Shown one piece after another: positions 35,987 through 60,658 of a DNA stretch of 64,000 nucleotides. Each line of letters starts with the position of its first letter. The stretch's first letter is position 1. The stretch lies in the UHGV virus genome UHGV-0033085; one strand, 5' to 3'. A model generated the notes under the pieces. The model did no database searches. It was not told the DNA's origin and saw only the letters and a list, made by a program, of their open reading frames with translations. Source of the DNA: a virus. Position numbers and translations under genes: made by a program.

Positions 35987-36029
35987 CTAATACTAGAAAA
36001 CAATTTGTTTAAAAAACAAAGGAAAGCAC

Positions 36030-37370
36030 ATGACCGAACTTTGCCATACAGGACGCGGGCTGTCCGAAGAGTTTGATGAAGATTTCCAGAACAGACTGAC
36101 GGCATATTTTTGTCGTGATCACGAGTTTCTTACTCGTGCGGGAGATCTGGTTGTGCCTAGCCAATTTGCCAATGCGGCCAATGCCATATTGGTTAATATG
36201 GTTTCGGGCTATTACCGTATGTACAAGAGCGCGCCCTCTTCATCTGCAATTCTTGATATGCTTAAGCGTGCGAAACGCGATAAGACTATCCGTGAGGAAC
36301 TATTCGCCGATGTTGTTGCTGCGTTTAAGCGCATTCTTGCAGAAAAATTGTCCGATACCTCGTACATGGTTGACCAGGTATCAACCTTCGCAAAAAGTGT
36401 AGCGTTTGATGATGCTCTGATTAAGGCTGCTGAACTGAAAGAGAAAGGCGACTTTCAGGGGGCGATGGCAATCATGGCCAAGGTTCAGCAGATTGGATCG
36501 AACGAAGCGACCGGAATCTATGACTACTACACCTCCGCAAGTGAGCGATTGAAAGCGCGTGAATATGAGGCTTCAGAGGAGTATGTGCCAAACAGCATTA
36601 CAACTGGACTCCCTCTGCTCGATAGGTTGCTGTACCAAAAAGGCTGGGCGAAGCGTGAAATGGTGCTCTTCATGGGGTTCGCTAAATCCGGTAAATCGAC
36701 TGCAATGGGTGAATTTTCCATAAACGCAACGCTTGCTGGCTACAATGTTCTGTATCTCTCGCTGGAGGTTCACACCACCATTTTATCCGACCGTTTTGAT
36801 GCAAGATTGTCGGAGACAGAAATGTCCAAGCTGGTGGAACGGCGCGATGAGGTTCATCGTAAGTTGGCAGAGTTGGGAGCCACGAAGGGGATTGGTAGTT
36901 TGTGGGTGGTTGAGCGTCCGTCAGGAAGTATGTCACCGGCAGATCTGGACCGTATGCTTAACAGCATGAAAGCCAACGGCATGGTGCCTGACATGGTTGT
37001 TGTCGACTACGCAGATTTGATGCGTGCCAGTTATGACCTTCGTGATGATCGCGCCAACATTCGTAGTATCTACACCGATTTACGTGCTCTTTATGACAAG
37101 CATAACGTTGCTGGGATCACGGCATCGCAGACAAACCGTGAAGGTGGCGCGTCAGAAGTTGCCACAATGATGCACGCCGCCGACAACATCGAAAAAGTAC
37201 GTATTGCTGACCTGGTAATAACGATCAACAAAACCGAAGAAGAAGAAGCGAAAGGAGAGGCTCGTCTCTACTTTGCCGGTTCACGTAACCAGCAGGGAGG
37301 GATCAGCATTCGCGTTAAACAAAACCTCGAACAAATGCGCTTCATTGAGCGAATCTTAGACGTTACCTAA
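36030..37370 (+). CDS. DnaB-like replicative helicase
   Basis: C-terminal RecA-like domain with Walker A GFAKSGKST and Walker B VVVDYADL. Confidence 0.7.
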   Translation: MTELCHTGRGLSEEFDEDFQNRLTAYFCRDHEFLTRAGDLVVPSQFANAANAILVNMVSGYYRMYKSAPSSSAILDMLKRAKRDKTIREELFADVVAAFKRILAEKLSDTSYMVDQVSTFAKSVAFDDALIKAAELKEKGDFQGAMAIMAKVQQIGSNEATGIYDYYTSASERLKAREYEASEEYVPNSITTGLPLLDRLLYQKGWAKREMVLFMGFAKSGKSTAMGEFSINATLAGYNVLYLSLEVHTTILSDRFDARLSETEMSKLVERRDEVHRKLAELGATKGIGSLWVVERPSGSMSPADLDRMLNSMKANGMVPDMVVVDYADLMRASYDLRDDRANIRSIYTDLRALYDKHNVAGITASQTNREGGASEVATMMHAADNIEKVRIADLVITINKTEEEEAKGEARLYFAGSRNQQGGISIRVKQNLEQMRFIERILDVT

Positions 37371-37451
37371 AAAATAAGCGTGGAGAACACCTCCACGCTT
37401 GATTCATTGGTGAAACAACTTTTCTTTTGCCAAACCACAAAAGAAAAACAC

Positions 37452-38633
37452 ATGAGCCTTTATGTTATATCAACATTTAGGTTGGTCACAATATTGCCTG
37501 TTAAAAGTGGAATTATCGTGAGCGAGCTGAAAGAGCTAATTACCGAATTAGATTTTGAACAATGGTTGGATACTGAAGGTATCGTTTATCGACGTGGAGG
37601 CGTGAGTACTCGCGGTCGTGAAGTGAATATCAAGGAGTGTCCGGTATGCGGCAGCTCCAACTGGAAGGTATATTTCAATCTGACCAGTGGCGTCGGTAAA
37701 TGCTTCGCTGGTGATCATCCCGAAGAGATTCAGTTCAATAAGCTGGTCTTCCTCAAGCACTACAGCGGCAAATCACGACGACAGTTCGAGGAATATGTGC
37801 AGAACGCCCTTCTTTCCCAGGGGTGGGCACCAAAGAAAGAAGAGCTAGTGCTTGCAAGCACAGTCGAGTTAGAGGGGCCAGTTGCACTCCCTCGTCATTA
37901 CGAGCTTCCTATAGATGGCCGTCTTCCAGACTATCTGGTTGAACGAAACATATCGCCTGAAATGGCAAAGTATTTTGACCTACGATACTGCGTCGAAGGC
38001 AAGCACGCCTATGTAGATCCGTATACAGATCAGGTTAAAGGACAGATATTCGATATGCGAATACTGATACCGGTTTACGATCTGGATGGGGTAATGAAGA
38101 CATTTCAGGGACGAGACATTACCGGTACAGCTGAACGTCGCTACCTCTTTCCTATGCAGCTTCCAGCTTCAGGTAAGTTTCTCTACAACGGCCATAATGC
38201 GGTCGGCAAACAGACTGTAGTTGTCTGTGAGGGGGCGTTCGATGTTATGGGGGTTAAACGAGCTATTTTTGATGAAGAAACATTACGTGATTACGTGGAA
38301 CCGATAGGAACGTTCGGGATGCATCTATCTGGTAACACCACTCAGGATGCAGAAGATCAGTTAGGCGCGTTCCTGACGCTCAAGGCGCGTGGGTTACGTA
38401 ATGTGATCATGATGTGGGATAGTGAAAAGCAAGCTATACGCAACACTATGGCCGCAGCCAGGCGACTGACCAGTATCGGTCTTAATGTCAAAGTTGCGTG
38501 TTTGGGGGAGGAAGGACTCGACCCGGGCGGTGCAACGCCAGAACAAATTATCAAAGCCTATTATCGGGCAAAACCGTATACCAAACAGTTGGAGTTGCAA
38601 AGCAAGGTTTTGGGCATTAAGGCTATATCGTAA
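37452..38633 (+). CDS. DNA primase (zinc-finger + TOPRIM)
   Basis: CPVCGSSNW...GKCF zinc motif, TOPRIM-like VVVCEGAFDVMG; ATG 37452 in CACATG context; listed start 37380 lies inside a hairpin. Confidence 0.65.
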   Translation: MSLYVISTFRLVTILPVKSGIIVSELKELITELDFEQWLDTEGIVYRRGGVSTRGREVNIKECPVCGSSNWKVYFNLTSGVGKCFAGDHPEEIQFNKLVFLKHYSGKSRRQFEEYVQNALLSQGWAPKKEELVLASTVELEGPVALPRHYELPIDGRLPDYLVERNISPEMAKYFDLRYCVEGKHAYVDPYTDQVKGQIFDMRILIPVYDLDGVMKTFQGRDITGTAERRYLFPMQLPASGKFLYNGHNAVGKQTVVVCEGAFDVMGVKRAIFDEETLRDYVEPIGTFGMHLSGNTTQDAEDQLGAFLTLKARGLRNVIMMWDSEKQAIRNTMAAARRLTSIGLNVKVACLGEEGLDPGGATPEQIIKAYYRAKPYTKQLELQSKVLGIKAIS

Positions 38634-38708
38634 CAAGTGCCGCCAAAATAAGTAGATGATTACTTATCTTTCTGTAAGAATACTTTCATCTGTTAGCTAG
38701 GAGTTGGT

Positions 38709-39485
38709 ATGAAAGACGAAATTCACAAATTAGCCTGCGACATCATTGATAAAACTGGTTTAGAAATCAGCGAGAGCAATCGACTAGACATCATTGAAAA
38801 AGCGGTAAAAACAGCAATGGATCATATCGCCACTCGTTTGGTTGAGATCCCGCTACCAGGGCTACCTTATCTGAAAGTTGAGTTACACGTATGGGGTGAA
38901 CCTTCTTGTGCACGACGTTCTGCATTAGTTGTTTTTATTAGCAAAGAAAACCCGCTCAGTCTTAAAGTGCAGGTTGGAGCATGGCTTGATGGCAGAGTGA
39001 TCTACACAAATACCGTTTTTTGTCTTTCAAACGACGAAACTATTGAAGCGGCCATTCAAGAAGCAGTTCTAGCAATGCGCAGCAGCGGTTTGATGAAGAA
39101 TAACTACGAAGAGTACTTGCGTTCGATAAGTGGTGAAAAGACATTATCTCTGAAAGCAGATTTCGTTACCCCGAAAAATCTGTTGGAAGTCTTGCTTAAT
39201 AAAGGGGCTAATGATGCCGTAAATGTAATCAGAGAGAGTGAGTATGCGTCTCTTTGCGACATGTGCAAAAGCCAGTTGGATCTGGTGCATATCGTTATTG
39301 ATGCTGGGAAGGCATGTGATGGCGTAATGGCGGAATTTGCTTGGAAGGTGGTCAGGATTGCTAACGAATTACCGATGATAGAGCAAGAGGCTAAATCATA
39401 CGCCACCAATCATATCACAGAGCTTCTTGCCCCCTATCGCTTAGAAAGCAATCAGCGCAAGATGATTAGCTGGGGAAGTTGGTAA
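38709..39485 (+). CDS. hypothetical protein
   Basis: 258-aa ORF with RBS. Confidence 0.35.
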   Translation: MKDEIHKLACDIIDKTGLEISESNRLDIIEKAVKTAMDHIATRLVEIPLPGLPYLKVELHVWGEPSCARRSALVVFISKENPLSLKVQVGAWLDGRVIYTNTVFCLSNDETIEAAIQEAVLAMRSSGLMKNNYEEYLRSISGEKTLSLKADFVTPKNLLEVLLNKGANDAVNVIRESEYASLCDMCKSQLDLVHIVIDAGKACDGVMAEFAWKVVRIANELPMIEQEAKSYATNHITELLAPYRLESNQRKMISWGSW

Positions 39486-39540
39486 TCTCTCCGCGCGTCG
39501 TTTTTTACGCAAATAACGATAGGTAAGTACAAGATTATTT

Positions 39541-40023
39541 ATGGCGGTAGTTGTGAAAGCTGATTTGTCAAAAATCCCCTCTATTTCAGGAAATAATGGT
39601 TATTCACTTCGTTGTGAGGAAGTAAAGATAAACGGTGAGTCGGCATATTGCAGCTACTCCGTTTGCCAGCACACCATTCTTGCCTTCAAAGAAAACCGTC
39701 TTCCTCGAACTTCATTCCAGTCGTGCGCAACCGCTATCAAAGCAGGCAAATGCAAGGCGTTAAAAATGATGGTTGAAGAGATTCGTAAAGGAGAATCTCT
39801 GTATTTCGAAGATATGACCGCGCTCATTAAGGAGGTTGAAGAACAGAATAAACAAGCCAGAACTTTAAAACGAAAACGTGACAGTGTAACGATTAATAGC
39901 ATGGTTAAGAAGAGCACCACATCACAAACAGCGATCACTGACGTGTATGCGGCGTTGCTTGAAGAAACAACAAAAGAAACACATGAGCAAATCGATCAAC
40001 ATATGGAGGTAAAACAACAATGA
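39541..40023 (+). CDS. hypothetical protein
   Basis: 160-aa ORF. Confidence 0.35.
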   Translation: MAVVVKADLSKIPSISGNNGYSLRCEEVKINGESAYCSYSVCQHTILAFKENRLPRTSFQSCATAIKAGKCKALKMMVEEIRKGESLYFEDMTALIKEVEEQNKQARTLKRKRDSVTINSMVKKSTTSQTAITDVYAALLEETTKETHEQIDQHMEVKQQ

Positions 40024-42931: not shown

Positions 42932-43006
42932 GATGGTGTAGCTCAGCGGTAGAGCAGTTGGCTGTTAACCAACTGGTCGGTGGTTCGAATCCACCCACCA
43001 TCGCCA
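42932..43006 (+). tRNA. tRNA-Asn (anticodon GTT)
   Basis: Cloverleaf by hand: acceptor GATGGTG/CACCATC, anticodon loop CTGTTAA, T-loop GGTTCGAATCC, encoded CCA. Confidence 0.8.
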
Positions 43007-43011
43007 ATTTA

Positions 43012-43098
43012 GGGGAGTTAGTCCGTAGAGGTAGCGGTGTAGACTGTAAATCTACTGTCATGGCGACTCGGGTGGTTCGACTCCATCACTCCCCACCA
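43012..43098 (+). tRNA. tRNA-Tyr (anticodon GTA), long variable arm
   Basis: Acceptor GGGGAGT/ACTCCCC, anticodon arm GTAGA-CTGTAAA-TCTAC, T-loop GGTTCGACTCC, CCA. Confidence 0.75.
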
Positions 43099-43102
43099 AA
43101 TT

Positions 43103-43178
43103 GCCGGTTTAGCTCAGTTGGTAGAGCGCCTGCCTTGTAAGCAGGATGTCAGCGGTTCGAGTCCGTTAACCGGCACCA
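43103..43178 (+). tRNA. tRNA-Thr (anticodon TGT)
   Basis: Acceptor GCCGGTT/AACCGGC, anticodon arm CCTGC-CTTGTAA-GCAGG, T-loop GGTTCGAGTCC, CCA. Confidence 0.8.
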
Positions 43179-43541
43179 ACACAACAGGTAAGTGCATTGG
43201 GCGAATCGGCGATACTGACCCACAAGCCCGTAAATCGATAGAGTCAGACCAGTGCTCTTACCGTTGTGAGGAAGTGCAGCTCTTTGAGGCAACCAGAAGA
43301 TAAGCATCTGGCTTCACAACACAACGATAAGATCATTACGGTTAATCGTCGTTCATGTGCACAATGACTGGTCGAAAGGTAGTGATCTTACCGTTGTGGT
43401 GGATTCGCAGACTGATGCGATAGCTTTCTTGGATGTTAGGGAAATGCGGCCGCAAATCTTCCCTTTCGCGAGCGGTGATCGTCCGTAGTCCTAATTGGCT
43501 GCACCGTATGCCGGAGATTCAGTACCGGCCACCACAACGGC

Positions 43542-43628
43542 CGGAGAGTAGGGAGCATGGTGCTCAAGCGGTCTTGAAAACCGTCCCATTGCGCAAGCGA
43601 TGATGGTTCGATTCCATTACTCTCCGCC
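43542..43628 (+). tRNA. tRNA-Ser (anticodon TGA), long variable arm
   Basis: Acceptor GGAGAGT/ACTCTCC, anticodon arm GCGGT-CTTGAAA-ACCGT, T-loop GGTTCGATTCC, CCA. Confidence 0.7.
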
Positions 43629-43851
43629 AGACACAGCGTTGAGCGGTTTGGCCTTTTAATCACCCAGATTAAGACTCCGCTAACATAAACCAGACCGCTC
43701 AACGCTGTGATAGACAATTACGGCAGACGTTCTTAACCATAGCTTGCTAACATCCTAGCAACACTTTTTTTCAGCGCAAAATTCAAAGGGGCTTCGGCCA
43801 CTTTTTTTGCAACTGAAAGAGTCAAGTCTACGAACTTTGTAGGAAGAAATA

Positions 43852-46602: not shown

Positions 46603-46700
46603 CCCCTCTTCTCCCTGCGCGAATGGCTTAGTTCCCTGTTCGCGCAGTGCTACATTAAACACAGTAGTAAATAATTTGTTTTCATAACAAAGGATTAGCC

Positions 46701-48809: not shown

Positions 48810-48904
48810 ACAAAACAGCCTTAACGATAAGTAACCACTTACGATATATAATGATATATTTATATAAGAAGTTGAACGCTCATTAGAGAACAAAGGAAAA
48901 ACGC

Positions 48905-50140
48905 ATGACGACTACTGCACTGCAAAATGAAAAAAATCCTTCTGATTACCTTGTTTGCAAGTGGTGCGGCAAATCATTTCACTATTTTAAGTCCCATGTA
49001 GCCAATGGTAATTGCGAGGGCATTCCTGAGTCAGTAAAAGATGCCGATCCTGACACCGTACTGAAAATGTACACAACGCAGTTTCCAGATGAACCAACGC
49101 TATCGAAAAAGGCACTTGATGCAATTCAAGCTAAACGTGCCGAGCAAAAAAGCGAAATGGCCAAATCTTCTGGCTTGACCAGTAGCCCTGGCTACACAGG
49201 CACAGTTGAGTACAAGACAGATCTGGTCGCAGCTCACGAACTGCTAAACGTAACAGTGGAAGAACTCGGAACAAAACGTGGGACGCCGCTCATGGTTAGC
49301 GTCAACGTCAATACGCCGTATCCAGAGTTCGTTCCCGAAGTGAAGAAAGGCTACGTATATGGCGACTTCGAACTGATCAAAGATATTTTCATGATGCTTG
49401 AACTTGGCATACCTGGCTATTTGTGGGGTCATGCAGGAACAGGCAAATCGTCATTGCCTACACAGCTATGTGCTTTGCTCAATCGTCCGTTGATCCGTGC
49501 CCAACATACAGCATCAATGGAAGAGGCACATGTTACGGGGCAAATTCTGGCGCGTGATGGCTCTACGTATTTCGAACCTGGCTTGCTTGCGCTCGCAATG
49601 AAGCATGGCTGGGTTTACCTCGCGGATGAATACGACTTTGCGTTTCCACAAATTCTTGGCGTGTATCAGCCAGTGCTGGAAGGTGAAGCGTTGGTCATCA
49701 AAGAGGCAACTCCAGAATGGCGTCGCATTACTCCGCATGAACGGTTTGCTTTCATTGGCACTGGCAACACGAACGGATCTGGTGATGAAACCGGCTTGTA
49801 CCAGGGTACAAACATCCAGAACGCCGCGAACTTTTCGCGTTTTGGCATCGTTTCGAATGTGAAATACATGAGCAAAGACGCAGAGATCAACATGTTGACA
49901 AATGCAGGCATCGTGGATGAATACGCTGAAAAGATGGTTAAGTTTGCCGGTATCGTTCGCGATGGATACGAAGAACACCTCATTAGTCAGCCAATTGGCC
50001 CTCGTGAACTTTTGTTGTCGGCCAAGATTGGAATGATGCGAGGCGACTTTGTGACAGGTATTGAGCGTTCTTTCATTAACAAACTCCCTTCAGCTTCTGC
50101 ACAAGCGGCTCGTGAAGTTGTTCAAAAAATATTTGGTTAA
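48905..50140 (+). CDS. CobS/MoxR-like AAA+ ATPase
   Basis: Walker A GHAGTGKSS, Walker B YLADEYD; N-terminal Cys/His cluster CKWCGKSFHYFKSH. Confidence 0.6.
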   Translation: MTTTALQNEKNPSDYLVCKWCGKSFHYFKSHVANGNCEGIPESVKDADPDTVLKMYTTQFPDEPTLSKKALDAIQAKRAEQKSEMAKSSGLTSSPGYTGTVEYKTDLVAAHELLNVTVEELGTKRGTPLMVSVNVNTPYPEFVPEVKKGYVYGDFELIKDIFMMLELGIPGYLWGHAGTGKSSLPTQLCALLNRPLIRAQHTASMEEAHVTGQILARDGSTYFEPGLLALAMKHGWVYLADEYDFAFPQILGVYQPVLEGEALVIKEATPEWRRITPHERFAFIGTGNTNGSGDETGLYQGTNIQNAANFSRFGIVSNVKYMSKDAEINMLTNAGIVDEYAEKMVKFAGIVRDGYEEHLISQPIGPRELLLSAKIGMMRGDFVTGIERSFINKLPSASAQAAREVVQKIFG

Positions 50141-50219: not shown

Positions 50220-50320
50220 CGATTGTCACCAATCAGCAAAAGAAGTTGCGATTTCGATGCATGGGAAGTTCGTAGGCTTCCACAATGACAAAATCAAAAA
50301 AACCAGAAAGGTAAAAACAC

Positions 50321-52684
50321 ATGAAGGCACTGATGGTTCGAACTGACTTCTCACTTGGGGAGTCGGCTCTAAAAGCAGAAAACGCGGTGAAGATTGCCAG
50401 AGAAGCTGGCTACACCGCTGTAATTTCAGCAGATAGCATGAATATTGCGAGCGTTATTCCACTACAACGTGCCGCTGGTGACGACATGGCGGTTATTTGT
50501 GGTGTGAAACTAAACATTGTTGATGATCCCACATACGAGCACCGGGCTAAACTTGCTAAAGAATCTATGAGATGTATGGAATCATTAGAGCGAGGACGTA
50601 ACTACTCGTTTACCGCTCTAATTAAAAATGAGAAAGGATATCGCGACATCTGCGAACTAATGACGGCGGCCAACACACGAGAACAGTTCTACTTTGTACC
50701 GCGTCTCTCGCTCGAACAGTTGGTTTCTACATATGCCAAAGGCAACATCATCCTGCTTACTTCCGACATCGGTAGCGTGTTCCAACGCAACGATTTTGCA
50801 AAAATCATAAGCACACTGATTACAGCGGGTGGAAAAGACAACTTCTATAGTGTGGTTTATCCGCACCCTACCCCATTCTACGACCAGATTAACGTCCGGG
50901 CGATGAAAGTCGCCAGCGCATTGAAAATAGAGCCAGTGGCGTTCTATCCCGCTTATTACGAATCGATCGACGATGCAGACATTAAAGACATTGCGCACAT
51001 GGTTACGAACAACATCAAAATCGACCAGCCGCATCGTCTGCGTATCCCCCACCAGCGAGATAACGCCGTCAATGGTCGCCGCCATCTCCTTGAGGCGCTT
51101 AAAGCCTTCTCCGTTCGCATGGATGTGCCGGTAACAGCTGCAATGGCCTCAACAACGCAGGATACCATTATCGATGCCTGCACATGGCGCTGGCATGAAT
51201 TGCCGCCAGCACTGCCAAAGATGGCAGACGACGAGCCTGCAACGCTGATGAAACTGGCTGTTGCAGGGCTGCGTAAACGTCTTACCACAAAAGAGTTTGG
51301 CTACACACCACCTGCTTCTGAGAACAGGGTTTATGTTGAGCGGCTAAAGTACGAAATGGACACGCTGACTCGCCTGGGATTCTGTGGTTACTTCCTGATG
51401 GTGCGCGATCTGATGAATCATAGTCGTGAAACTGGCATTCCCGTTGGGCCTGGTCGTGGTTCCTCTGCCGGTTCTCTGGTGGCGTGGTGCATAGGCATAA
51501 CCAACGTCGACCCAATCCGTCACGGTCTTCTGTTTGAGCGTTTCATCAACCCTGAGCGTCTCGACTTGCCGGATGCGGACTTGGACTTCAGCCAGGCACG
51601 TCGCCATGAGGTGATCGAGTATCTGAATGAACGCTACGGCGAAGATTACGTTGCAGGCATTCCGAACTTCACCTACCTGGGCGCAGCCTCTGCACTACGT
51701 GATACCGCTCGTATTTATGGTGTGGAGTCCGCAGATATGGCGGTATCAAAAGAGCTGAAGAACGTCGAGGATGATAGCCTTCCATTGGAGGAGCTGCGCG
51801 AACAACTGGCAAGTCTCGACAAATACGCAACAAAATATCCTGATGCATTCAATGCAGCCTGCAAGTTACAAAGCCTTATGCGTGGCTTTGGTAGACATGC
51901 GGCAGGGATGATCGTAGCAGGTGTTCCTCTGACAGAACGTACACCGGTTGAACGCCGTGGTGACGCGCGTTGTATCGCATTTGACAAGCGTTACTGCGAG
52001 GCTATGGGCCTAATTAAGCTGGACGTACTCGGTCTGGCAACTCTCGATTTGCTCGATAGTGCAAAACGCTACATAAAAGAGAACACAGGTGAAGATATCA
52101 ATCTTGATGCCATTTCTCTTGAAGATCGCAAGGTGCTGGATGGTTTTGCTGCAGGGTATACACAGGGCGTATTCCAGCTTGAATCAGGCCCAATGCGCAA
52201 GCTGCTTAAAGATTTAGGTGGTGGAATTGAGCCAATGAGCTTTAAAACGGTCGTCGCTACAACTGCGCTCTTCCGACCTGGCCCGATTCAATCCGGCATG
52301 TTGGACGATTATGTGTCCGTGGCCAAAGGCTTCATGGCCCCACATTCCTTACACCCAATGCTGGACGACATCTCTCGCGACACAAACGGAGTTCTGATTT
52401 ATCAGGAACAGATCATGGCTGCTACGCGAATCTTGGCGGGGTTCTCAATGGCGGAAGCAGACTCGGTCAGGAAAGCGATCGGGAAAAAAGATATGGAGAA
52501 AATGAAATCCATTGGCGGCGACTTCATTAAGCGAGCGGAGGAAGGCTGGGTGACAGTGTCACTGGATGATGGTTCTACGAGAAAAATCCATAAAGCAGCA
52601 CGCCTACTTTGTGCTGATGGTGAGCGTCGCACTTATGCCGAAGCAATGGCAATAAATGCCGACATAACGAGCTTCGATATTTGA
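50321..52684 (+). CDS. dnaE: DNA polymerase III alpha (DnaE-type), N-terminal fragment; last about 45 codons non-homologous
   Basis: PHP-like N-terminus; core motif GPGRGSSAGSLVAWCIGITNVDP, LLFERFINPER, DADLDF; homology ends near 52546. Confidence 0.8.
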   Translation: MKALMVRTDFSLGESALKAENAVKIAREAGYTAVISADSMNIASVIPLQRAAGDDMAVICGVKLNIVDDPTYEHRAKLAKESMRCMESLERGRNYSFTALIKNEKGYRDICELMTAANTREQFYFVPRLSLEQLVSTYAKGNIILLTSDIGSVFQRNDFAKIISTLITAGGKDNFYSVVYPHPTPFYDQINVRAMKVASALKIEPVAFYPAYYESIDDADIKDIAHMVTNNIKIDQPHRLRIPHQRDNAVNGRRHLLEALKAFSVRMDVPVTAAMASTTQDTIIDACTWRWHELPPALPKMADDEPATLMKLAVAGLRKRLTTKEFGYTPPASENRVYVERLKYEMDTLTRLGFCGYFLMVRDLMNHSRETGIPVGPGRGSSAGSLVAWCIGITNVDPIRHGLLFERFINPERLDLPDADLDFSQARRHEVIEYLNERYGEDYVAGIPNFTYLGAASALRDTARIYGVESADMAVSKELKNVEDDSLPLEELREQLASLDKYATKYPDAFNAACKLQSLMRGFGRHAAGMIVAGVPLTERTPVERRGDARCIAFDKRYCEAMGLIKLDVLGLATLDLLDSAKRYIKENTGEDINLDAISLEDRKVLDGFAAGYTQGVFQLESGPMRKLLKDLGGGIEPMSFKTVVATTALFRPGPIQSGMLDDYVSVAKGFMAPHSLHPMLDDISRDTNGVLIYQEQIMAATRILAGFSMAEADSVRKAIGKKDMEKMKSIGGDFIKRAEEGWVTVSLDDGSTRKIHKAARLLCADGERRTYAEAMAINADITSFDI

Positions 52685-52732
52685 GAATTAATTTATAAGA
52701 TAAGAAAACAATTTGTTTAGTGAGTCTTAGAA

Positions 52733-53467
52733 ATGCCGAGTACGAAGTACAAAATCACAGAAGAATGGTTACGTCAGCGTTACATGGTTGACCTGATGAG
52801 AAAAGAAGACATTGCCGCCGAAGCTGGTTGCAGCAAGGCAAATATTGACCGCTTATTAGCCAAATGGGGGATCAGGCGCGGAAGCGCGCGGATCTCCGCT
52901 ACCCCAGCCTGGAATCGTGGCAAAAACAAAAATAATGACGAACGTATGAAGCGTCTCTCCGAAGCCCGGACTGGCACTGGCAACCCTATGTATGGGAAAA
53001 CCTCGTGGAATGCCGGTCTGCGTGCTGATATCGATGAGCGAGTGGCCACCGTTTCGAAAAAGCTAACCGGCAGAACAATCCGCGCGGAGACGAAGGAAAA
53101 GCTGGCGGCTGCCAAACGTGGAAAGATCGGAGAAGAAGCGAACAACTACAAAGGTGGCATCATCGTAAAAACCAACGGCTACATGATGCAGCTGGTTGGT
53201 AACAATGGCGTTTCGCAATACGAATACGTTCATCGATTGATAGCGAAAGAACGTCTCGGTCGGGAGCTACGTGACGATGAACATGTCCACCATATTAACC
53301 GCGATACGATAGATAACGCCCCTGGGAATCTTGTAGCACTTCCAGAAGACGCCCACATTCGCCTGCATAGTGAAATGCGTGAAGAGATATGGAGCTGGGA
53401 GCGCCAACGGAACTGGCTGGCCTCCAATGGGTATGAGTTCGTGAAGATTGATGAGGTGACTGCATGA
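52733..53467 (+). CDS. HNH homing endonuclease (NUMOD-like repeats + HNH)
   Basis: HNH motif HHINRDTIDNAPGNLVALPEDAHIRLH; repeated GKxxWNxG / KRLSEARTG-type motifs. Confidence 0.8.
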   Translation: MPSTKYKITEEWLRQRYMVDLMRKEDIAAEAGCSKANIDRLLAKWGIRRGSARISATPAWNRGKNKNNDERMKRLSEARTGTGNPMYGKTSWNAGLRADIDERVATVSKKLTGRTIRAETKEKLAAAKRGKIGEEANNYKGGIIVKTNGYMMQLVGNNGVSQYEYVHRLIAKERLGRELRDDEHVHHINRDTIDNAPGNLVALPEDAHIRLHSEMREEIWSWERQRNWLASNGYEFVKIDEVTA

Positions 53468-54633
53468 AAATTACCGGTGTTGTCGAAGAGAGCAATGGCC
53501 TGACGCACGAACGAGCCGAAGAAATCTGGAATATGTTTGAGAAATCCGGCGCGTATGCCTTCAACAAATCACACTCTGTTGCTTACTCCTTAATCAGTTA
53601 TCAATCTATGTGGTTGAAAACTCATTATCCCGCGGAGTTCTTCGCTGCTGCTCTCACTATTCTTGGCGAAGATAAACACCAGGGGCTGGTTAAAGATGCG
53701 CTGACCTATGGTATTCGCGTATTGCCACCAGACGTTAACGTGTCATCTAACCGAATCGAGATCCGCACGCTTGAAGATGGCAGCCAGGTGCTGTATGCGC
53801 CCTTCTCTGCTGTGAAAGGGTGTTCTGAGAATGGCTGCCAAGCCATCATGAGAGCGCGAGAAAAAGTTGGCGGCAAATTCGAGTCACTGGCGCAATTCGA
53901 AGAAGCTGTCGAGAAACGTGCCTGTAATAGTCGAGTGCGCGAATCGCTGCAAAAAGTAGGGGCGTTTGCATCCATCGAGCCAGGTAGTCTGCCAGCAACT
54001 GATCCAGAGCGCCTACGCGACCAGGCTGAATTGATGGGAAACCTTGTCATAGACGCAGTTAAAGCCTCACGTCCGTTTGAGATGAACCCCAAACGTTCGG
54101 CTGAGATTAACGTACTCATGACGCGGATGGCGGCTGAAATGGGCTTAGGTGATGAACTAATCCGCCCCAGCATTGGTATTAAGCCGAAAATCATGATCAT
54201 TCTGGACAATGCGAACGGCAATGATGCTCGAACCGGTTACTTTATGGAGAACGGATACGACGATTTTAAGGCCAAGCTGTTGACGGCTGGGGATTTGCGC
54301 ATGGGCGATCTCTATGTCACAGGCGTTTGCAAAAAGGTGAAAGACAAAGAAAAGGACTACACCAAAGACGAGATCGGCCAGTTCACCGACTTTATGCGTG
54401 AAGAGATCAATCTGGTGCGCCCGACCTATGTGCTGACGTGTGGTAGCCGGGCAACGGCATTGTTTAACAACAAAAACAAGCCATCCGATTTGGTCGGCAG
54501 GAAGGAGTATCTTCCAGACCTTGACGTTACTGTCTTTTACGGGTTTAACCCCAACATTCTTTACTTCAGACCTGAAGAGGGAGAACGACTAGAAGCGATA
54601 TTAGCCGACGTAGCAGAAACTATTAAGTCGTGA
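53464..54633 (+). CDS. dnaE: DNA polymerase III alpha (DnaE-type), C-terminal fragment
   Basis: Motif YAFNKSHSVAYSLISYQSMWLKTHYPAEFFAA; own ATG with GAGGTG upstream. Confidence 0.8.
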   Translation: MKITGVVEESNGLTHERAEEIWNMFEKSGAYAFNKSHSVAYSLISYQSMWLKTHYPAEFFAAALTILGEDKHQGLVKDALTYGIRVLPPDVNVSSNRIEIRTLEDGSQVLYAPFSAVKGCSENGCQAIMRAREKVGGKFESLAQFEEAVEKRACNSRVRESLQKVGAFASIEPGSLPATDPERLRDQAELMGNLVIDAVKASRPFEMNPKRSAEINVLMTRMAAEMGLGDELIRPSIGIKPKIMIILDNANGNDARTGYFMENGYDDFKAKLLTAGDLRMGDLYVTGVCKKVKDKEKDYTKDEIGQFTDFMREEINLVRPTYVLTCGSRATALFNNKNKPSDLVGRKEYLPDLDVTVFYGFNPNILYFRPEEGERLEAILADVAETIKS

Positions 54634-54640
54634 TCCAATA

Positions 54641-54670: not shown

Positions 54671-54758
54671 ATCCCCTCATATCCCCTATCCTCGAACTCC
54701 TTGCCTTATCATCACAATGATATAATCAATATAAGATGATAAGTAAAAAGGAAAGCAC

Positions 54759-55190
54759 ATGATCACCGATATTTACGAGAAAATAATGTCTGATCTCGAG
54801 TTTGACCGAGACAATCTGGAGGAAGTCTGGCGTAGACAACCCCGCCTTTTAATGGAGTATGGCTCAAAACTCGCTCATGCAGAAAGAAGTGTCGCAGAGG
54901 CAAAACTTAACCTTGAAGCTGTTGAAGCAAAGCTATACGACACAGAGCGTAAGAACTTGAGTATGAACGGCATTAAGTTCAACGAATCTGTACTGGACGC
55001 TAAGGTTAAAACAAACCCACAGTATCTGTCTAAAAGGCAGAAGTTGGATGAAGCACGGCACATCGCAGACATATACAAACATGCTGTCGCCGCCTTTTCG
55101 CATCGCCGAGACATGATCGTTCAGGCGTCAAAGATGGCCATCGTTGAATTAGAGCGATTAGGCTCTGAACGCTTTATTACTCCCCGTTGA
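54759..55190 (+). CDS. hypothetical protein (weak UvsY-like resemblance)
   Basis: 143-aa helical ORF between polymerase and SSB; CACATG start context. Confidence 0.35.
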   Translation: MITDIYEKIMSDLEFDRDNLEEVWRRQPRLLMEYGSKLAHAERSVAEAKLNLEAVEAKLYDTERKNLSMNGIKFNESVLDAKVKTNPQYLSKRQKLDEARHIADIYKHAVAAFSHRRDMIVQASKMAIVELERLGSERFITPR

Positions 55191-55307
55191 TTTTTGATAG
55201 ATAATAAGTAAGTACTGATCTATCATTTAACAGCTCGAAAGAGCCACGAATGAACGAAAGCCCAACGCGCATAGCGCCATCGGCCAAATCACAACAAGGA
55301 GAAACAC

Positions 55308-56336
55308 ATGTCTAAGACATTACTTGATTTGCTTAACAAAACTCGTGAAGACATTGCCGCCAAACGTGGTAACAACGTTGATCTGACTCGCTTAAAAGAC
55401 GGCGTCAACTATATCCGCATCTTCCCGAATAAAGACGACCCAAACGGTAAGTTCTTCCAGACTTTCGGTATGCACTACGTTAAGTATCAGAACGAGGAAG
55501 GTAAAGAAGCAACCAACGCTTATATTTGTGAGCAACATACTCACGGTCGCGCTTGTCAGCTATGCGAAATGGTGATGGAAGGTCGCGCTCGTCACAAGGG
55601 TAACAAAGCAATGGAAGAACGCATCGGTCAAATGCGTGCCACTCCTCGCTACCTGGTCAACGGCATTCTTTCTGCTCGTGAGGATTTCGCAGATGCTGAG
55701 AAATGCCAGTTAATCGAGCTGCCGTCTACTGTATTCGATGATATCTGCAAAGCAATCACCGAAGACATCGCTGATGATATCGGCAATCCACTGAGCAAAG
55801 AGGAAGGCTACGCATTCCTGATTAAACGTACTGGCTCTGGTCGCGATACCAAATATGACGTCTCGCCTAAGCGTAAAGTCTACAAAGGCGATATCGAAGA
55901 TAAATTCTGGAATACCCAGCATGATCTGATCGCATACGCAAATCAGGCTGATGAAACTCGTCTTCTGTCGACAGTTCGCACTATGGGTCGTCTGATTGGC
56001 ATCGCTGCACCAACTGCCGCAGCATCTGCACCAGCAATTTCCTCAACCGCGAAAACATCGGCTGCGGCACTACCTGGATTTGGCTCTGTCACTGGTCATA
56101 CGGAGGGTGCGACTGCTGTAGCTACCGCTCATACCCCAGCTTCTGAACCAACCAGTCTGGTTGATGAAGAAATCCTCCGTGCCGTTGAAACTGAATTTAA
56201 ACCAGAAGCAAGTTCCGCTGCCGTTGCAGTATCAGTCAAAGAGTCTGAAGCAGTCGCAGCGACATCTGTAGCAGCCGCATCTGCGACGGAAGATGAAGGT
56301 CTGGATGACCTACTGAGAGAGCTGGACTCTCTGTAA
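55308..56336 (+). CDS. ssDNA-binding protein (T4 gp32-like, putative)
   Basis: Zinc-type motif CEQHTHGRACQLC, segment YIRIFPNKDDPNG, Ala/Ser-rich linker, acidic C-terminus. Confidence 0.5.
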   Translation: MSKTLLDLLNKTREDIAAKRGNNVDLTRLKDGVNYIRIFPNKDDPNGKFFQTFGMHYVKYQNEEGKEATNAYICEQHTHGRACQLCEMVMEGRARHKGNKAMEERIGQMRATPRYLVNGILSAREDFADAEKCQLIELPSTVFDDICKAITEDIADDIGNPLSKEEGYAFLIKRTGSGRDTKYDVSPKRKVYKGDIEDKFWNTQHDLIAYANQADETRLLSTVRTMGRLIGIAAPTAAASAPAISSTAKTSAAALPGFGSVTGHTEGATAVATAHTPASEPTSLVDEEILRAVETEFKPEASSAAVAVSVKESEAVAATSVAAASATEDEGLDDLLRELDSL

Positions 56337-56352
56337 TCCCATTACGTGACCA

Positions 56353-56383
56353 GTAAGGCGTCTACGGACGCCTTACTTTTTGG
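56353..56383 (+). terminator. rho-independent terminator
   Basis: GTAAGGCGTC-TACG-GACGCCTTAC followed by TTTTTGG. Confidence 0.7.
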
Positions 56384-56396
56384 AAGGAATGTACCG

Positions 56397-57341
56397 GTGA
56401 ATTATCTCTTCGTAGATGGCAATAGCCTGGGTTATTACCACCAACAATCTGACAAATTGCACAACGGCGAAATGGAAGTACAGGCTGCTTTCGGCTTTGT
56501 TAAGAACGTCCGTCGTTATGCCTCCATCCTCCATGCCCGACCTATGATTCTTTGGGATGGATTTAGTGACAAGCGTCGCGACTTTTACCCGGACTACAAA
56601 GCAAATCGCGACGACGATCCTGATATGAAAAAGATGAAGGAAGGCTTTGCTATCCAGAAGCCATACATCCTCAAAATGATGACCGCGCTTGGAGTTACCC
56701 AACTCATTGCAAAAGATGCAGAAGCGGATGATCTGGCCGGGCTGCTGGTAGCCAGCATTGCACCGCAGCCAATCGTTGAACACATCTATCTGTTAACAGG
56801 CGATAGCGACTGGCTTCAGTTAGTTCGCGAAAACGTAAGCTGGGTAAGCCTGCGCGAAGACGCCAAAAACAAGCAGGTTAATTTTGAGCAATTTGCGGAG
56901 CTGACAGGATTCGCTACTCCTCGCGCATTTTTGGAAGCAAAAGCATTACAAGGCGATAAATCGGACAACATTAGCGGTGTTGGTGGCATTGGTGCTGGCG
57001 GTGCGAAAGAGCTGCTGCATGAATGGGGAAGTGTCGCAACGATGGTGCGCGGCATCAACGACGGCTCAATCGTGGTTGACAAAGGACGCCATAAGACCGC
57101 CTTCAACAAACTAGCGAAGAATGCCTTCAACGAGAAAACAGGCTGTCGAATGCTCGAAGCGTTCAAGAGAAACATCACGCTAATGAACCTGATTGAGACG
57201 AAGTTTCCGCCTACCGAAATCGAAACAATCAAAGGCAATCGTGACGTGAAAGCATTCGAGCAACTGTGCTACGAGCTGAATTTCCGTTCGTTCCTTGAAG
57301 ACCTTGAAGTGTTTGTTCTTCCATTCGAAAGGTATTGCTAA
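56397..57341 (+). CDS. 5'-3' exonuclease / flap endonuclease (FEN family)
   Basis: GTG 56397 after GGAAGGA; motifs YLFVDGNSLGYY and AEADDLAG. Confidence 0.65.
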   Translation: MNYLFVDGNSLGYYHQQSDKLHNGEMEVQAAFGFVKNVRRYASILHARPMILWDGFSDKRRDFYPDYKANRDDDPDMKKMKEGFAIQKPYILKMMTALGVTQLIAKDAEADDLAGLLVASIAPQPIVEHIYLLTGDSDWLQLVRENVSWVSLREDAKNKQVNFEQFAELTGFATPRAFLEAKALQGDKSDNISGVGGIGAGGAKELLHEWGSVATMVRGINDGSIVVDKGRHKTAFNKLAKNAFNEKTGCRMLEAFKRNITLMNLIETKFPPTEIETIKGNRDVKAFEQLCYELNFRSFLEDLEVFVLPFERYC

Positions 57342-57607
57342 TGCTTAAATCGATTATTAATGGCGCTACAACCACCCCTGCCCAACTGGCAAAAGAGATT
57401 GTCTTTTATCACGGTGAGTACGCTGTCATCGCACTGCCGTCAATTCTAGGCGCTGCCGGAATGAAAGCGACAGATCGCGAGTTTGGATTAGTCAGCGAGC
57501 AGGTCGTAAAAATCCTCGCTCGTGTATCCAGACTCCTTAACCACGATGCGATTGTATTCGACGAATCCGCCGCTTTAAAACGAATCAACGAAACAAAAGG
57601 AGCCTGA
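57335..57607 (+). CDS. hypothetical protein
   Basis: 90-aa ORF coupled to flanking genes. Confidence 0.3.
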   Translation: MLMLKSIINGATTTPAQLAKEIVFYHGEYAVIALPSILGAAGMKATDREFGLVSEQVVKILARVSRLLNHDAIVFDESAALKRINETKGA

Positions 57608-57609
57608 TC

Positions 57610-58683
57610 ATGGCAAAAGGAAAATCCGCACTGGCACTTGCTCTGAAAAAGAAAATCGGTAGCAACGACGAAATTCAGAAAGTAACTCATTGGATTGACA
57701 CAGGCTTTCCTCCGTTAAACAAAGCGATTTCCGGTCGTTACGATGGCGGTTTCCCATGTGGTCGTATCGTAGAAGTATTCGGGCCACCAAGCGCGGGGAA
57801 AACCTTTTTGGCAACGGCAGCAATGATCTCCGCACAGAAACAAGATGGTCTGGCGGTATTCCTCGATCATGAGAACAGTTTTGACGTTGGCCTGGCTGTA
57901 GCCAATGGTTTGAATGCAGATGAGGATGACGGTCAGTGGGTATACAAGCAGCCTGATACCTTCGAAGACTCTGTAGAGTTGATCGGCACAATTCTTAAAT
58001 TGGTACGTGATGAAGAGCTTATTCCTGAATCAGCACCTATCTGTATCGTGGCTGACTCACTTGCGTCTATGGTTCCGAACTCCAAAGCCGAGAAGTTCGA
58101 AAAGATGGCTGAAGGCACTGCCAAAGACAAAGATCAGCTAAACATGAACGACAATACGGCACTGGCTCGTGCGACAAGTGCGAACTTCCCTACTCTGGCT
58201 TTGTGGGCACGCAAATACAACGCCTGCATCATCTTCTTGAATCAGGTTCGCACAAAAATCGGTGTAATGTTTGGCGACCCTACTACGTCTCCAGGTGGAG
58301 ATTCACCGAAGTTCTACGCTTCTGTACGTATCCGTCTTGGTGCATCGGTGATGAAGGATGGTAAAGAGAAGATCGGCCAGGACGTAGGCGCAGAATGCAT
58401 CAAAAACAAAGTTGCACCACCGTATGGCAAATGCACCTGGAAATTCTACTTCGATCCTACTCGTGGCCTCGACGTTATCGAATCGCTCGTCGAGTACATG
58501 CTGGAAGAAGGATACCTGCCAAAGAACGCCAGCGGGCGAGTTGAAATTGGTGACAAGAAATACACCAAATCGCAGATCGTCGAGATGTATCGGGAGAAGC
58601 CACTGGCTGAAATCATTGCGGCTTTGCAGGCAATCGACGACCGAAGAGCAAAAGACAACCCCACCGAGTCAGTAGAAGAGTAA
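57610..58683 (+). CDS. RecA/UvsX-family recombinase
   Basis: Walker A GPPSAGKT; RecA-like core. Confidence 0.7.
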   Translation: MAKGKSALALALKKKIGSNDEIQKVTHWIDTGFPPLNKAISGRYDGGFPCGRIVEVFGPPSAGKTFLATAAMISAQKQDGLAVFLDHENSFDVGLAVANGLNADEDDGQWVYKQPDTFEDSVELIGTILKLVRDEELIPESAPICIVADSLASMVPNSKAEKFEKMAEGTAKDKDQLNMNDNTALARATSANFPTLALWARKYNACIIFLNQVRTKIGVMFGDPTTSPGGDSPKFYASVRIRLGASVMKDGKEKIGQDVGAECIKNKVAPPYGKCTWKFYFDPTRGLDVIESLVEYMLEEGYLPKNASGRVEIGDKKYTKSQIVEMYREKPLAEIIAALQAIDDRRAKDNPTESVEE

Positions 58684-58687
58684 ACAC

Positions 58688-58714
58688 AAGGCGTCCACAG
58701 GACGCCTTTTTTAT
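58688..58714 (+). terminator. rho-independent terminator
   Basis: AAGGCGTCC-ACAG-GACGCCTT followed by TTTTTATC. Confidence 0.7.
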
Positions 58715-58775
58715 CTCTTGAAAATATATAAGTACTTACTTATTATTTTCGCATAACAACCACATAGGAAAACAC

Positions 58776-58976
58776 ATGATCAAAATCTATCTATTGGCAG
58801 TAGCCACAGGCGTTTCAGTGGCTCTCATCTACGGTTTACTGGTTCCGTCGCTGATTTCTACCAAGAGTGATTTAGCCGTCATGTTTGGAGTTATCGTTGG
58901 TTTTGGTGCTCCTGTAATCGGTCTTATTGCTGGTCGTAAGTTTATCAACTCATTAATCAAAGCAAAGGGGAAATAA
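58776..58976 (+). CDS. small two-TM membrane protein
   Basis: 66 aa, two hydrophobic helices; precedes SPFH gene by 3 nt. Confidence 0.4.
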   Translation: MIKIYLLAVATGVSVALIYGLLVPSLISTKSDLAVMFGVIVGFGAPVIGLIAGRKFINSLIKAKGK

Positions 58977-58979
58977 GTA

Positions 58980-59810
58980 ATGAAGAAAGGTTTACTTGCA
59001 GTTGCTCTGGCGGCTATTTGCACAATGGGTCTTACTGGCTGTGATCGCGTGGAGCCTGGATACGTTGGCATCAAAGTAAACAAATTAGGTGAAGACAAAG
59101 GGATCGGTGAAGTGGTTGGCGTTGGTCGCCAATGGACAGGTCTTAACACCGAACTTTACGTATTCCCGACCTTCAAACAAATGAAGACCTACGACGAGCC
59201 GTTCACATTCCAGATGAGTGACGGTACTGCTATTGGTCACAAAATTGGCGTTGCGTATCTGGTTAATCGTGACAAGGTAACGACGGTGTTCCAGACCTAT
59301 CGCAAAGGCGTAGACGATATCACCGAATCAGATCTGCGTCAGAAAATTGCCGACTCTCTAAACCGTTTGGCCAGCCGTATGACCACTGACTCATTTATCG
59401 ACGGTGGTAAGGCGCAATTGCTGGACAACGCACTGAAAGATATTCAGAAAGAGATGTCTCCGGTTGGTATTGAGGTACTGAGCCTGTCATGGGTTGGAAA
59501 GCCTGATTACCCAAAAACCGTCATTGAATCTATCAACGCCAAAGTAACGGCTAACCAGCGTACTCTGCAACGTCAGCAGGAAGTTGAACAGCGTAAAGCT
59601 GAGGCGAATATGCTACGTGAACAGGCTAATGGTGAAGCTGATGCTATCCGTGCTCGTGCGCAAGCAGAAGCCGACGCCATTCGTCTGCGCGGTGAAGCTC
59701 TGCGTCAAAACCCGAACGTTATGGAGCTGGAAGTCATCAATAAATGGAATGGCCAGTTACCGCAGTACATGACTCAAGGGGCTAACACTCCTTTCATTAC
59801 AGTGAAATAA
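58980..59810 (+). CDS. SPFH/band-7 domain lipoprotein
   Basis: Lipobox LTGC after signal peptide; SPFH-like core; C-terminal Ala/Glu/Arg-rich coiled coil. Confidence 0.6.
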   Translation: MKKGLLAVALAAICTMGLTGCDRVEPGYVGIKVNKLGEDKGIGEVVGVGRQWTGLNTELYVFPTFKQMKTYDEPFTFQMSDGTAIGHKIGVAYLVNRDKVTTVFQTYRKGVDDITESDLRQKIADSLNRLASRMTTDSFIDGGKAQLLDNALKDIQKEMSPVGIEVLSLSWVGKPDYPKTVIESINAKVTANQRTLQRQQEVEQRKAEANMLREQANGEADAIRARAQAEADAIRLRGEALRQNPNVMELEVINKWNGQLPQYMTQGANTPFITVK

Positions 59811-59825
59811 CTCCCCTAAAAAGTT

Positions 59826-59853
59826 CAGGCGTCCAGTTGGACGCCTTTTTTAT
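59826..59853 (+). terminator. rho-independent terminator
   Basis: AGGCGTCC-AGTT-GGACGCCT followed by TTTTTATC. Confidence 0.7.
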
Positions 59854-59901
59854 CGCAATTATCTTATTAAGAAAACAATTTGTTTAAAAGGATAAGAAAA
59901 C

Positions 59902-60327
59902 ATGACAGTTATTAAGAAACTCTACGATGCCGCAAACGTGGCTCTGGATGTTATTGATGATGAAGTAGCAAAAGGCTTTCCTGAACCTGATTGGGCGCAT
60001 CAGCTACGAAACGCTATCGCCGAAATGAATCCACCAGATCCGACCACCGACGAGACAGACTGGCAGCGATTTATCCGTATGTACGCTCAGGAAATAGGTC
60101 CAACGCCAACGGCAGAGCAAGCAATGCTGCTGAAATACTTCAAAGAGGCGGGAGAGGATTTACCAATTGATGACTCAGCATATTGGTTCCACTGCACATG
60201 GCGTAAGTATGACGTGATATTCACACAAGGCATGGGGAGCAAAGATATGGTTGTGTGGCATCTACTCCATATAGACACAGCCGTTGACAGAGTTATTGAA
60301 CAGTTTTTCCCTAAACAAGAAGATTGA
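59902..60327 (+). CDS. hypothetical protein
   Basis: 141-aa ORF. Confidence 0.35.
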   Translation: MTVIKKLYDAANVALDVIDDEVAKGFPEPDWAHQLRNAIAEMNPPDPTTDETDWQRFIRMYAQEIGPTPTAEQAMLLKYFKEAGEDLPIDDSAYWFHCTWRKYDVIFTQGMGSKDMVVWHLLHIDTAVDRVIEQFFPKQED

Positions 60328-60382
60328 TCGCCTATTCATAACTAACAAAATAAGTAAACACTAACCACAAAAGGAAAAACAC

Positions 60383-60658
60383 ATGAGAGTTTTAGTTCGA
60401 ATCGTTACCAGCACTGTCTATGACGTGTTTCCGCTTTTTATGGTCAAAGCCGATGGCCTTAACGACGAAGAAACTGACGCGCTGATCCAGCGTATTCTCG
60501 TTGAATATACAGGTCATGACGCTGATTCAGTGATGGTTGATGATGATGGTGTTTGTTGGCATAACGGCAACTGTTGGTACGTAGAAGAGACTCAACAAAT
60601 CAGTGATGAAGATGCCGCACATCTTGAGCGTATTTTAAGCATCAGCACTTTTGAGTGA
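60383..60658 (+). CDS. hypothetical protein
   Basis: 91-aa ORF, CACATG start context. Confidence 0.35.
   Translation: MRVLVRIVTSTVYDVFPLFMVKADGLNDEETDALIQRILVEYTGHDADSVMVDDDGVCWHNGNCWYVEETQQISDEDAAHLERILSISTFE

Follow-up and report, generated by a model that had tools for sequence, protein, structure and literature searches.

A sequence adjoining the start codons of non-structural genes in SSU5-like phage-plasmids

RESULTS

A conserved sequence lies directly before the ATG of non-structural genes

The window analyzed here is the whole 64,000-nucleotide stretch of UHGV virus genome UHGV-0033085. It is an SSU5-like phage-plasmid with 98% identity to Escherichia phage CMS-2020a. A short sequence with the consensus AAGGAAAAACAC stands directly before the ATG in a set of its genes. 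Read 5' to 3', the motif has a Shine-Dalgarno core that is short and in most cases AAGGA, next an A-tract, and finally CAC abutting the AUG. Aligned on the ATG, the consensus is the same in three lineages. Comparison of orthologous upstream regions indicates that the motif is kept by selection across the family, with positions -6 to -1 under the strongest purifying selection. It is probably a selected translation-initiation element. It marks about 12 to 15 non-structural genes per genome, including those for the helicase, the primase leader, CobS, DnaE, the gp32-like single-strand DNA-binding protein, SbcD, NrdB, and several small early genes. We give about an even chance to the fuller reading, in which the motif is a clade-specific start-associated mRNA sequence that a trans-acting regulator reads as a label of the early and DNA-metabolism class.

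The signal is positional. CACATG is not over-represented in the window, with 26 copies on both strands versus 39.7 in shuffled sequences. Eight of the 17 plus-strand copies lie exactly at gene starts, and seven of the eight plus-strand copies of A[AG]CACATG are gene starts. The gene set contained 72 curated starts, 34 beyond 35 kb and 38 structural; the virion module occupies 3 to 31 kb. CAC was present at -3 to -1 in 9 of the 72 genes, whereas the base composition of the upstream regions predicts 0.6 (binomial p = 1e-8). It was found in 9/34 genes beyond 35 kb versus 0/38 structural genes (Fisher p = 6e-4), which agrees with an earlier note on this DNA that the structural genes do not share the motif. 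Across the eight motif genes, A makes up 64% and C 29% of positions -7 to -1, with 0% T. The same positions are 29 to 31% T in other genes, and structural-gene spacers are 29% T. A composition artifact is ruled out by the expected count and by this base usage.

Motif copies in the window

Ten plus-strand starts had been listed in the earlier note, and each is an ATG with the context given there. Eight have full ...AAGGAAA(A/G)CAC matches: 36030, 37452, 48905 (CGC for CAC), 50321, 54759, 55308, 58776, and 60383. The other two, 35246 and 59902, are weak.

The DnaB-like helicase gene starts behind ACAAAGGAAAGCAC (36016 to 36032, plus strand; weight-matrix score, 24.0 bits). The next plus-strand copy, CAAAAGAAAAACAC (37438 to 37454), has no GG and opens a 22-codon leader open reading frame (ORF) at the primase gene. 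Position 37452 is not the annotated primase start; in the window the leader is in frame with the primase GTG at 37518. Farther along the plus strand, CAAAGGAAAAACGC precedes the CobS-like AAA+ ATPase start (48891 to 48907). The DNA polymerase III alpha (DnaE) start follows AAAGGTAAAAACAC (50307 to 50323, plus strand), and this copy sits within the 3' end of a 67-codon upstream ORF. AAAAAGGAAAGCAC (54745 to 54761, plus strand) precedes a UvsY-like gene and is a lineage-specific gain; the UvsY-like label is itself a weak PHROG match. The gene for the gp32-family single-strand DNA-binding protein starts after ACAAGGAGAAACAC (55294 to 55310, plus strand), and that for a 66-amino-acid membrane protein after ACATAGGAAAACAC (58762 to 58778, plus strand). 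The top match, at 26.3 bits, is AAAAGGAAAAACAC before the start of a 91-amino-acid protein (60369 to 60385, plus strand).

The two weak sites are also on the plus strand. The gene for a 246-amino-acid protein has AGGTGAGCCAC before its ATG (35232 to 35248), a partial copy with CAC, no A-tract, and a different Shine-Dalgarno sequence (AGGTGAG). The DUF7238 gene has AAGGATAAGAAAAC (59888 to 59904), which ends in AAC and has a palindrome (palindrome A, described below) upstream.

Two further copies were found. AACAAAAGAAACAC (39969 to 39985, plus strand) is an internal copy that is also present in SSU5. It opens a 9-codon ORF at 39983, inside the gene preceding the ligase gene, and the stop of this ORF falls within the ligase Shine-Dalgarno sequence. 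On the minus strand, ACAAAGGTGTCCAC (63042 to 63058) stands before a candidate ATG of repA (Rep3_N domain), just downstream of four iterons. This candidate start at 63044 has AAAGGTGTCCAC before the ATG and is the probable repA start. The motif can in this way correct gene starts, such as the leader ORF before the primase gene and the start of repA.

Conservation across SSU5-like relatives

A weight matrix built from the eight window sites was run on Cyrano, SSU5, and Klebsiella pJN2-26. Each of these genomes has 10 to 14 start-linked copies. The motif was also seen at hundreds of IMG/VR loci. By contig scans, an exact 14-mer gave single chance matches in viral contigs, and a scan of genome contigs yielded five loci. 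More copies in Cyrano lie at SbcD, NrdB, TciA-like, Ead/Ea22-like, and Eae-like genes. The motif is confined to the coding strand. All four genomes agree in that a coding-strand A[AG]CACATG is nearly always a gene start. The spacing from GG to ATG shifts by one or two bases; CAC always adjoins the ATG. In logos from three lineages, information peaks at -6 to -1 (AAACAC) and is lower at the Shine-Dalgarno bases. The C residues at -3 and -1 rank among the best-conserved bases of the motif.

For a test of selection, motif genes were picked from the window only, and their orthologues were then compared in SSU5 and pJN2-26. Orthologues of motif genes have 92% identity at -6 to -1 and 62% at -30 to -13. 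Non-motif genes with free upstream regions have 67% and 57%, respectively, and their best-kept upstream part is the Shine-Dalgarno region. The difference at -6 to -1 between motif and other genes is significant (Fisher p = 5.6e-5).

Persistence was counted in three 80-locus IMG/VR samples. [AG]CAC before the ATG was kept at the helicase start in 79/79 loci with 19 distinct leaders, at the DnaE start in 77/77 loci, and at the p58776 start in 44/44 loci with 17 leaders on four unrelated backgrounds. CAC was kept at the p60383 start in 45/49 loci. The neighboring control starts did not have [AG]CAC (exonuclease, 0/80; RecA, 0/76; p58980, 0/42; p60698, 0/54). The Shine-Dalgarno type varies among orthologues (AAGGA, AGAGG, GAGGG, or AAGAG) with AAACAC constant, and the spacing and upstream leader also change while [AG]CAC persists.

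Other starts are less uniform. Orthologues of the 35246 gene have CAC in 55/78 loci, with a variable Shine-Dalgarno sequence. The CobS start has AAACAC in 42/80 loci and CGC, in the E. coli group, in 33/80. The gp32 start has CAC in 36/80 loci and TAC in 42/80. At the UvsY start the motif is present in just 8/79 loci, and homology between the window and Cyrano resumes exactly at the ATG of this gene (54759/54760). The motif at the CobT start is confined to the Klebsiella lineage.

Control genomes and Shine-Dalgarno strength

CAC at -3 to -1 was absent from the controls, with 0/46 genes in E. coli K-12, 0/41 in phage P1, and 0/50 in Pseudomonas phage nickie. The distant phage nickie contains the same replication module in the same gene order as the window. 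These motif-free controls show that base composition, host ribosome-binding-site usage, and ancestry of the module do not account for the motif. A host or general coliphage preference is ruled out by the three counts, and an ancient feature of the replication module by the syntenic module of nickie. The earlier note had named base composition and standard ribosome-binding-site preference as the explanation that would defeat its proposal; the statistics and the host and phage controls speak against that explanation.

The median Shine-Dalgarno duplex energy is -5.6 kcal/mol for motif genes versus -6.15 and -5.15 kcal/mol for other genes. These energies are ordinary and rule out a stronger Shine-Dalgarno sequence as the meaning of the motif. 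Together with the information peak at -6 to -1, they uphold the view that conservation extends past a generic Shine-Dalgarno sequence. Under generic initiation, conservation would be limited to the bases that pair with the anti-Shine-Dalgarno sequence and an A/U-rich spacer, and it would be shared with host and highly expressed genes. Neither was found, and CAC is the best-conserved part.

DISCUSSION

A possible reader of the motif

The motif would act at translation initiation, where it would label early and DNA-metabolism mRNAs. We consider it possible, at somewhat less than an even chance, that a dedicated trans-acting factor reads it. A binding site for such a regulator is the most likely role of the motif. 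The regulator, of phage or host origin, would be a protein that either competes with the 30S subunit or helps it. The genes of the regulon would then be translated in concert, as under T4 RegA, but through a protein unrelated to it. A more specific and tentative proposal, which we hold to be rather doubtful, is that an RNA-binding factor unrelated to RegA reads AAACAC-AUG and switches about a dozen early, replication, and recombination mRNAs as a block. Such a switch could, for example, keep the functions of lytic replication silent while the element is a plasmid, or shut them off at a late stage of infection.

Several results weigh against a dedicated reader. A phmmer search with T4 RegA (query verified against PDB 1REG) found no homologue among 5,071 ORFs from four genomes, those of the window, Cyrano, SSU5, and pJN2-26 (best E value, 0.26). 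Pfam and PHROG scans of about 60 proteins detected neither RegA nor RegB, nor any known RNA-binding repressor. Duplex scans covering five sequences revealed no separate antisense locus complementary to the motif; the matches were the sites' own opposite strands and one 10-nt coding-region match that is not kept in Cyrano. The small 60383 gene, which has the best motif match, is absent from the motif-bearing Klebsiella pJN2-26 and so cannot encode a universal factor. The motif has been gained or lost at some orthologues (UvsY, CobT, C/T at gp32, and A/G at CobS) and is therefore not essential for every gene. Finally, the motif initiation regions have an opening energy of 4.9 kcal/mol versus 6.1 and 7.8 kcal/mol in other genes (p = 0.02), so unstructured A/C-rich leaders may bring a gain that is independent of any factor.

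In a separate comparison, three small proteins matched PDB sequences at noise level only.

The earlier note had proposed a common translational operator, for example for an autoregulatory RNA-binding protein such as T4 RegA or gp32, or alternatively an RNA processing site. The properties expected of such an operator are present: the motif is found only at non-structural genes, those of replication, recombination, and nucleotide metabolism, follows gene orientation, is anchored to the AUG, and is selected. The mechanisms that were named were not supported. Against a RegA-like mechanism stand the lack of a homologue among the 5,071 ORFs and a motif without U, since RegA sites are A+U-rich. For gp32, the window does encode a family member (PF08804, E = 1.7e-66). 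T4 gp32 represses only its own mRNA, so gp32 alone does not explain at least 12 motif sites.

Alternative explanations

An unstructured, A/C-rich short leader with an A-tract spacer may simply initiate well on enterobacterial ribosomes, with no dedicated reader. Convergent selection or common descent would have established it time and again in early genes close to a promoter. We regard this as unlikely. In its favor, most motif genes come first after a promoter-like element, with a short leader, and their lower opening energy fits as well. E. coli FlowSeq data show that A in the spacer raises translation and that C in the spacer is unfavorable (PMC7264876). The C residues at -3 and -1 are nevertheless highly conserved, so the motif seems to match the generic E. 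coli optimum only partly. Its Shine-Dalgarno strength is ordinary, and at the primase leader its A-rich half is held in a conserved hairpin. The motif is also missing from all 38 structural genes, capsid and tail included, as well as from the 46 host and 41 P1 genes. That abundant structural proteins never use it argues for class-specific control rather than plain efficiency.

The motif could instead be a recognition or processing site of an endoribonuclease, either of the T4 RegB/S1 type, whose sites serve to shut down early mRNAs, or an ACA-specific toxin (MazF). This is quite improbable. RegB sites likewise combine a Shine-Dalgarno core with an A-rich tail in early-gene initiation regions (PMC3014915), and the invariant AC of the motif plus the A of AUG gives ACA. 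Most sites have GGAA and not GGAG, however, and no RegB-like family was present among the roughly 60 proteins scanned. Sense-strand ACA has an observed/expected ratio of 1.02, with 490 copies in the early region. Because ACA is not depleted, an ACA-specific nuclease would shred these mRNAs anyway, and MazF-type cleavage to yield leaderless mRNAs is unsupported.

A DNA-level element is highly improbable, whether it be a promoter whose leaderless transcripts begin with the A of ATG, a site bound by a protein, or a linker for recombination that shuffles modules between gene starts. In E. coli promoters, C at -1 with A at +1 is a favored transcription start context, which the motif fits, and some homology breakpoints lie at gene starts, such as 54759/54760. 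Against this, the region contains no T and so has no -10-like sequence at the right distance, a Shine-Dalgarno core lies at normal spacing inside the motif, the motif is on the coding strand only, and the DnaE copy is inside an operon. The p58776 and p60383 leaders have diverged by point changes, without breakpoints and with the motif kept.

Significance

Among Enterobacteriaceae, phage-plasmids of the SSU5-like kind are common, and they are carriers of resistance genes. A signal anchored to the start codon would offer a handle on the quiet plasmid state versus the induced lytic replication genes. The proposed regulon would span relatives in Klebsiella, Salmonella, and Yersinia pestis. The element is 12 nt long, can be mutated, can serve as bait for a reader, and can be tested in E. 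coli. If a dedicated reader exists, it would represent a new family of phage translational regulators. The system would also be a tractable E. coli model for the start-associated sequences of mycobacteriophages, whose function has been open since 2011.

Leaders of the primase and gp32-like genes

The primase leader (37452 to 37517) has 22 to 23 codons and is conserved, with the pattern MSLY...ILP.KS. In SSU5 and the Klebsiella relatives it is a separate upstream ORF, ending with ATGA on the primase start. A 10-bp hairpin, UUUUCUUUUG / CAAAAGAAAA (37420 to 37447, plus strand), has an opening energy of 13 kcal/mol. The A-rich 5' half of the motif is paired within it, whereas ACACAUG stays unpaired. 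Six of its pairs are invariant; in 16 Klebsiella-type loci both sides of pair 7 have changed, from TA to CG. The hairpin covers the Shine-Dalgarno-like region of the leader. The leader and hairpin likely provide translational attenuation of the primase.

The region leading into the gp32-like gene (55198 to 55310) contains a promoter-like TAGATA-N17-TATCAT and a leader about 75 nt long. Two conserved hairpins lie in this leader, GCUC-GAAA-GAGC and GCC..GCGC-AUA-GCGC..GGC. To their 3' side, 26 nt of unstructured CA-rich RNA reach into the start. The stems are invariant, so no covariation was seen, and no pseudoknot was found in this leader. The layout recalls the autoregulatory leader of T4 gene 32.

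Promoters and palindromes

A terminator and then an element resembling a promoter or operator precede most motif genes, which are the first ORF behind them. On the plus strand before the ATG at 58776, for example, a terminator (58688 to 58708) is followed by TTGAAA-N17-TATTAT (58718 to 58746). DnaE and the primase leader are exceptions and are internal to transcription units. Two palindrome families, GAAAACAAnTTGTTT and ATAAGTAnnTACTTAT, lie upstream of most motif genes, and both also occur without the motif.

Palindrome A, (A/T)AGAAAACAAnTTGTTTAA, lies 16 to 67 nt before gene starts. It is found in the window at 2971 to 3010 (two copies), 33067 to 33081, 35997 to 36011, 46668 to 46682, 52705 to 52719, and 59872 to 59886. 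Its target genes are a terminase-region gene, parA, the helicase gene, cobT, a homing endonuclease gene, and the DUF7238 gene; it accompanies a mobile endonuclease gene. At least six genes in Cyrano also have it upstream. It has the look of an operator, or else of a promoter-proximal or 5' leader element, serving a dispersed regulon.

Palindrome B, ATAAGTA-N-TACTTAT, often follows TTGA and lies before late and early genes. Copies start at 4936, 6443, 8366, 11941, 18427, 25342, 30467, 35215, 38649, 42165, 48828, 55205, 58725, 60351, and 60678. The copy within 58718 to 58746 occupies the spacer of the TTGAAA-N17-TATTAT promoter. Palindrome B is similar to the -22 box (AAGTNACTT) found in late promoters of phage P1 and may be the late-promoter or master-repressor site of the family. 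Gene 60698 has no Shine-Dalgarno sequence. Within 60674 to 60700, a palindrome-B-like TATATAAGTTAGTATCTACCTATC reaches its ATG and is kept in 54 loci, and initiation of this gene may be unusual or leaderless.

Other features of the window

Domain scans confirmed a DnaB-like helicase, a DnaG-type primase, an ATP-dependent ligase, a CobT/CobS pair, DNA polymerase III alpha, a RecA-family recombinase, a Rep3-type initiator, and ParA. An Rfam scan of the window matched three tRNAs and no other family. The tRNA cluster (42932 to 43629) encodes Asn-GTT, Tyr-GTA, Thr-TGT, and Ser-TGA within a 1.7-kb ORF-free stretch. The annotation of Cyrano contains Asn, Thr, and Ser tRNAs only.

The dnaE gene (50321 to 54633) is broken into ORFs of 787 and 389 amino acids by an HNH/NUMOD3 homing endonuclease gene (52733 to 53467). 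It is uninterrupted in Cyrano (1,168 amino acids). The C-terminal fragment has 83% identity to Cyrano versus 97% elsewhere, and this low identity is expected close to a homing site. RecA is an uninterrupted 357 amino acids in the window (junction at 57801 to 57811) versus 779 amino acids in Cyrano. The insertion in the Cyrano gene is about 1.3 kb (35175 to 36451 of the compared Cyrano piece) and is probably an intein or other mobile element.

The iteron CTGTCAGCGG is present on the minus strand in twelve copies (exact or with one mismatch) at 61470 to 61945 and 63066 to 63161. The iterons border the Rep3-type repA, eight downstream and four upstream. The repA region (61438 to 63178) has no homology to Cyrano, which indicates that the replicon module was swapped.

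A GIY-YIG (LEM-3-like) nuclease gene (34196 to 34963, minus strand) lies between the partition and replication modules. Minus-strand ORFs at 31999 to 32836 match in position a pair annotated in Cyrano as a KacT toxin and putative antitoxin. A 160-amino-acid protein (39541 to 40023) has a Cys-rich N terminus and a basic patch, KRKR. Its gene overlaps the ligase start (ATGA) and is kept in SSU5 and the Klebsiella relatives. It is possibly a nucleic-acid-binding regulator. Like it, the gp32-like protein, an 88-amino-acid protein at 57341, and a protein at 63366 with the annotation ASCH in Cyrano are candidate readers of the motif.

Comparison with known systems

T4 RegA sites are A+U-rich (AAAAUUAUG) and have no clear sequence conservation (PMC3014915). 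Like them, the motif overlaps or abuts the AUG, contains a 5' poly(A) tract, and is unstructured, with the opening energy of 4.9 given above. Both are present on many early or middle mRNAs, those of replication genes included (PMC3014915). The motif differs in having 0% T at -7 to -1, in being far more uniform, and in belonging to genomes in which no RegA homologue was found among the 5,071 ORFs. In early-gene initiation regions, the strong sites of T4 RegB/S1, GG*AGRAYARAA, join a Shine-Dalgarno core to a 3' part rich in A (PMC3014915). The motif is similarly long, with a Shine-Dalgarno core and an A-rich 3' part that includes a pyrimidine, and it lies in the same kind of region. It differs in that GGAG is found at 55308 only, the other motif sites having GGAA, GGTA, or AGAA, and in the lack of a RegB-like protein among those scanned.

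T4 gene 32 has an A/U-rich operator that is found on the mRNA of this gene alone and is nucleated by a pseudoknot. The window likewise encodes a gp32-family protein whose own leader is structured and then unstructured into the initiation region. The motif differs in being A/C-rich and on at least 12 mRNAs.

In our literature search we found no paper describing the motif. By analogy, its closest known counterpart is the set of Start-Associated Sequences (SAS/ESAS) of Cluster K mycobacteriophages (Pope et al. 2011, PMC3203893), whose function was still unverified in 2025 (PMC12699233). The SAS is also a short asymmetric repeat with about 10 to 19 copies per genome. It lies in the non-structural half, nearly always in one orientation, immediately upstream of starts that are mostly ATG. 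It too combines a Shine-Dalgarno core with conserved bases that cannot pair with 16S rRNA. Its conservation spans subclusters and different gene families, and copies have been gained and lost. Upstream inverted repeats often go with the SAS. The two differ in sequence, the 13-bp SAS consensus GGGATAGGAGCCC having no relation to the one found here. The SAS ends 3 to 7 bp before the start, whereas the present motif adjoins the AUG. The palindromes here also occur without the motif, late genes included. The host is Gram-negative and the lineage is that of the SSU5-like phage-plasmids. Because the sequences are unrelated, the motif is an analogous element and not a member of the SAS family. By this likeness, it appears to be the first Gram-negative counterpart of the mycobacteriophage start-associated sequences that we could find.

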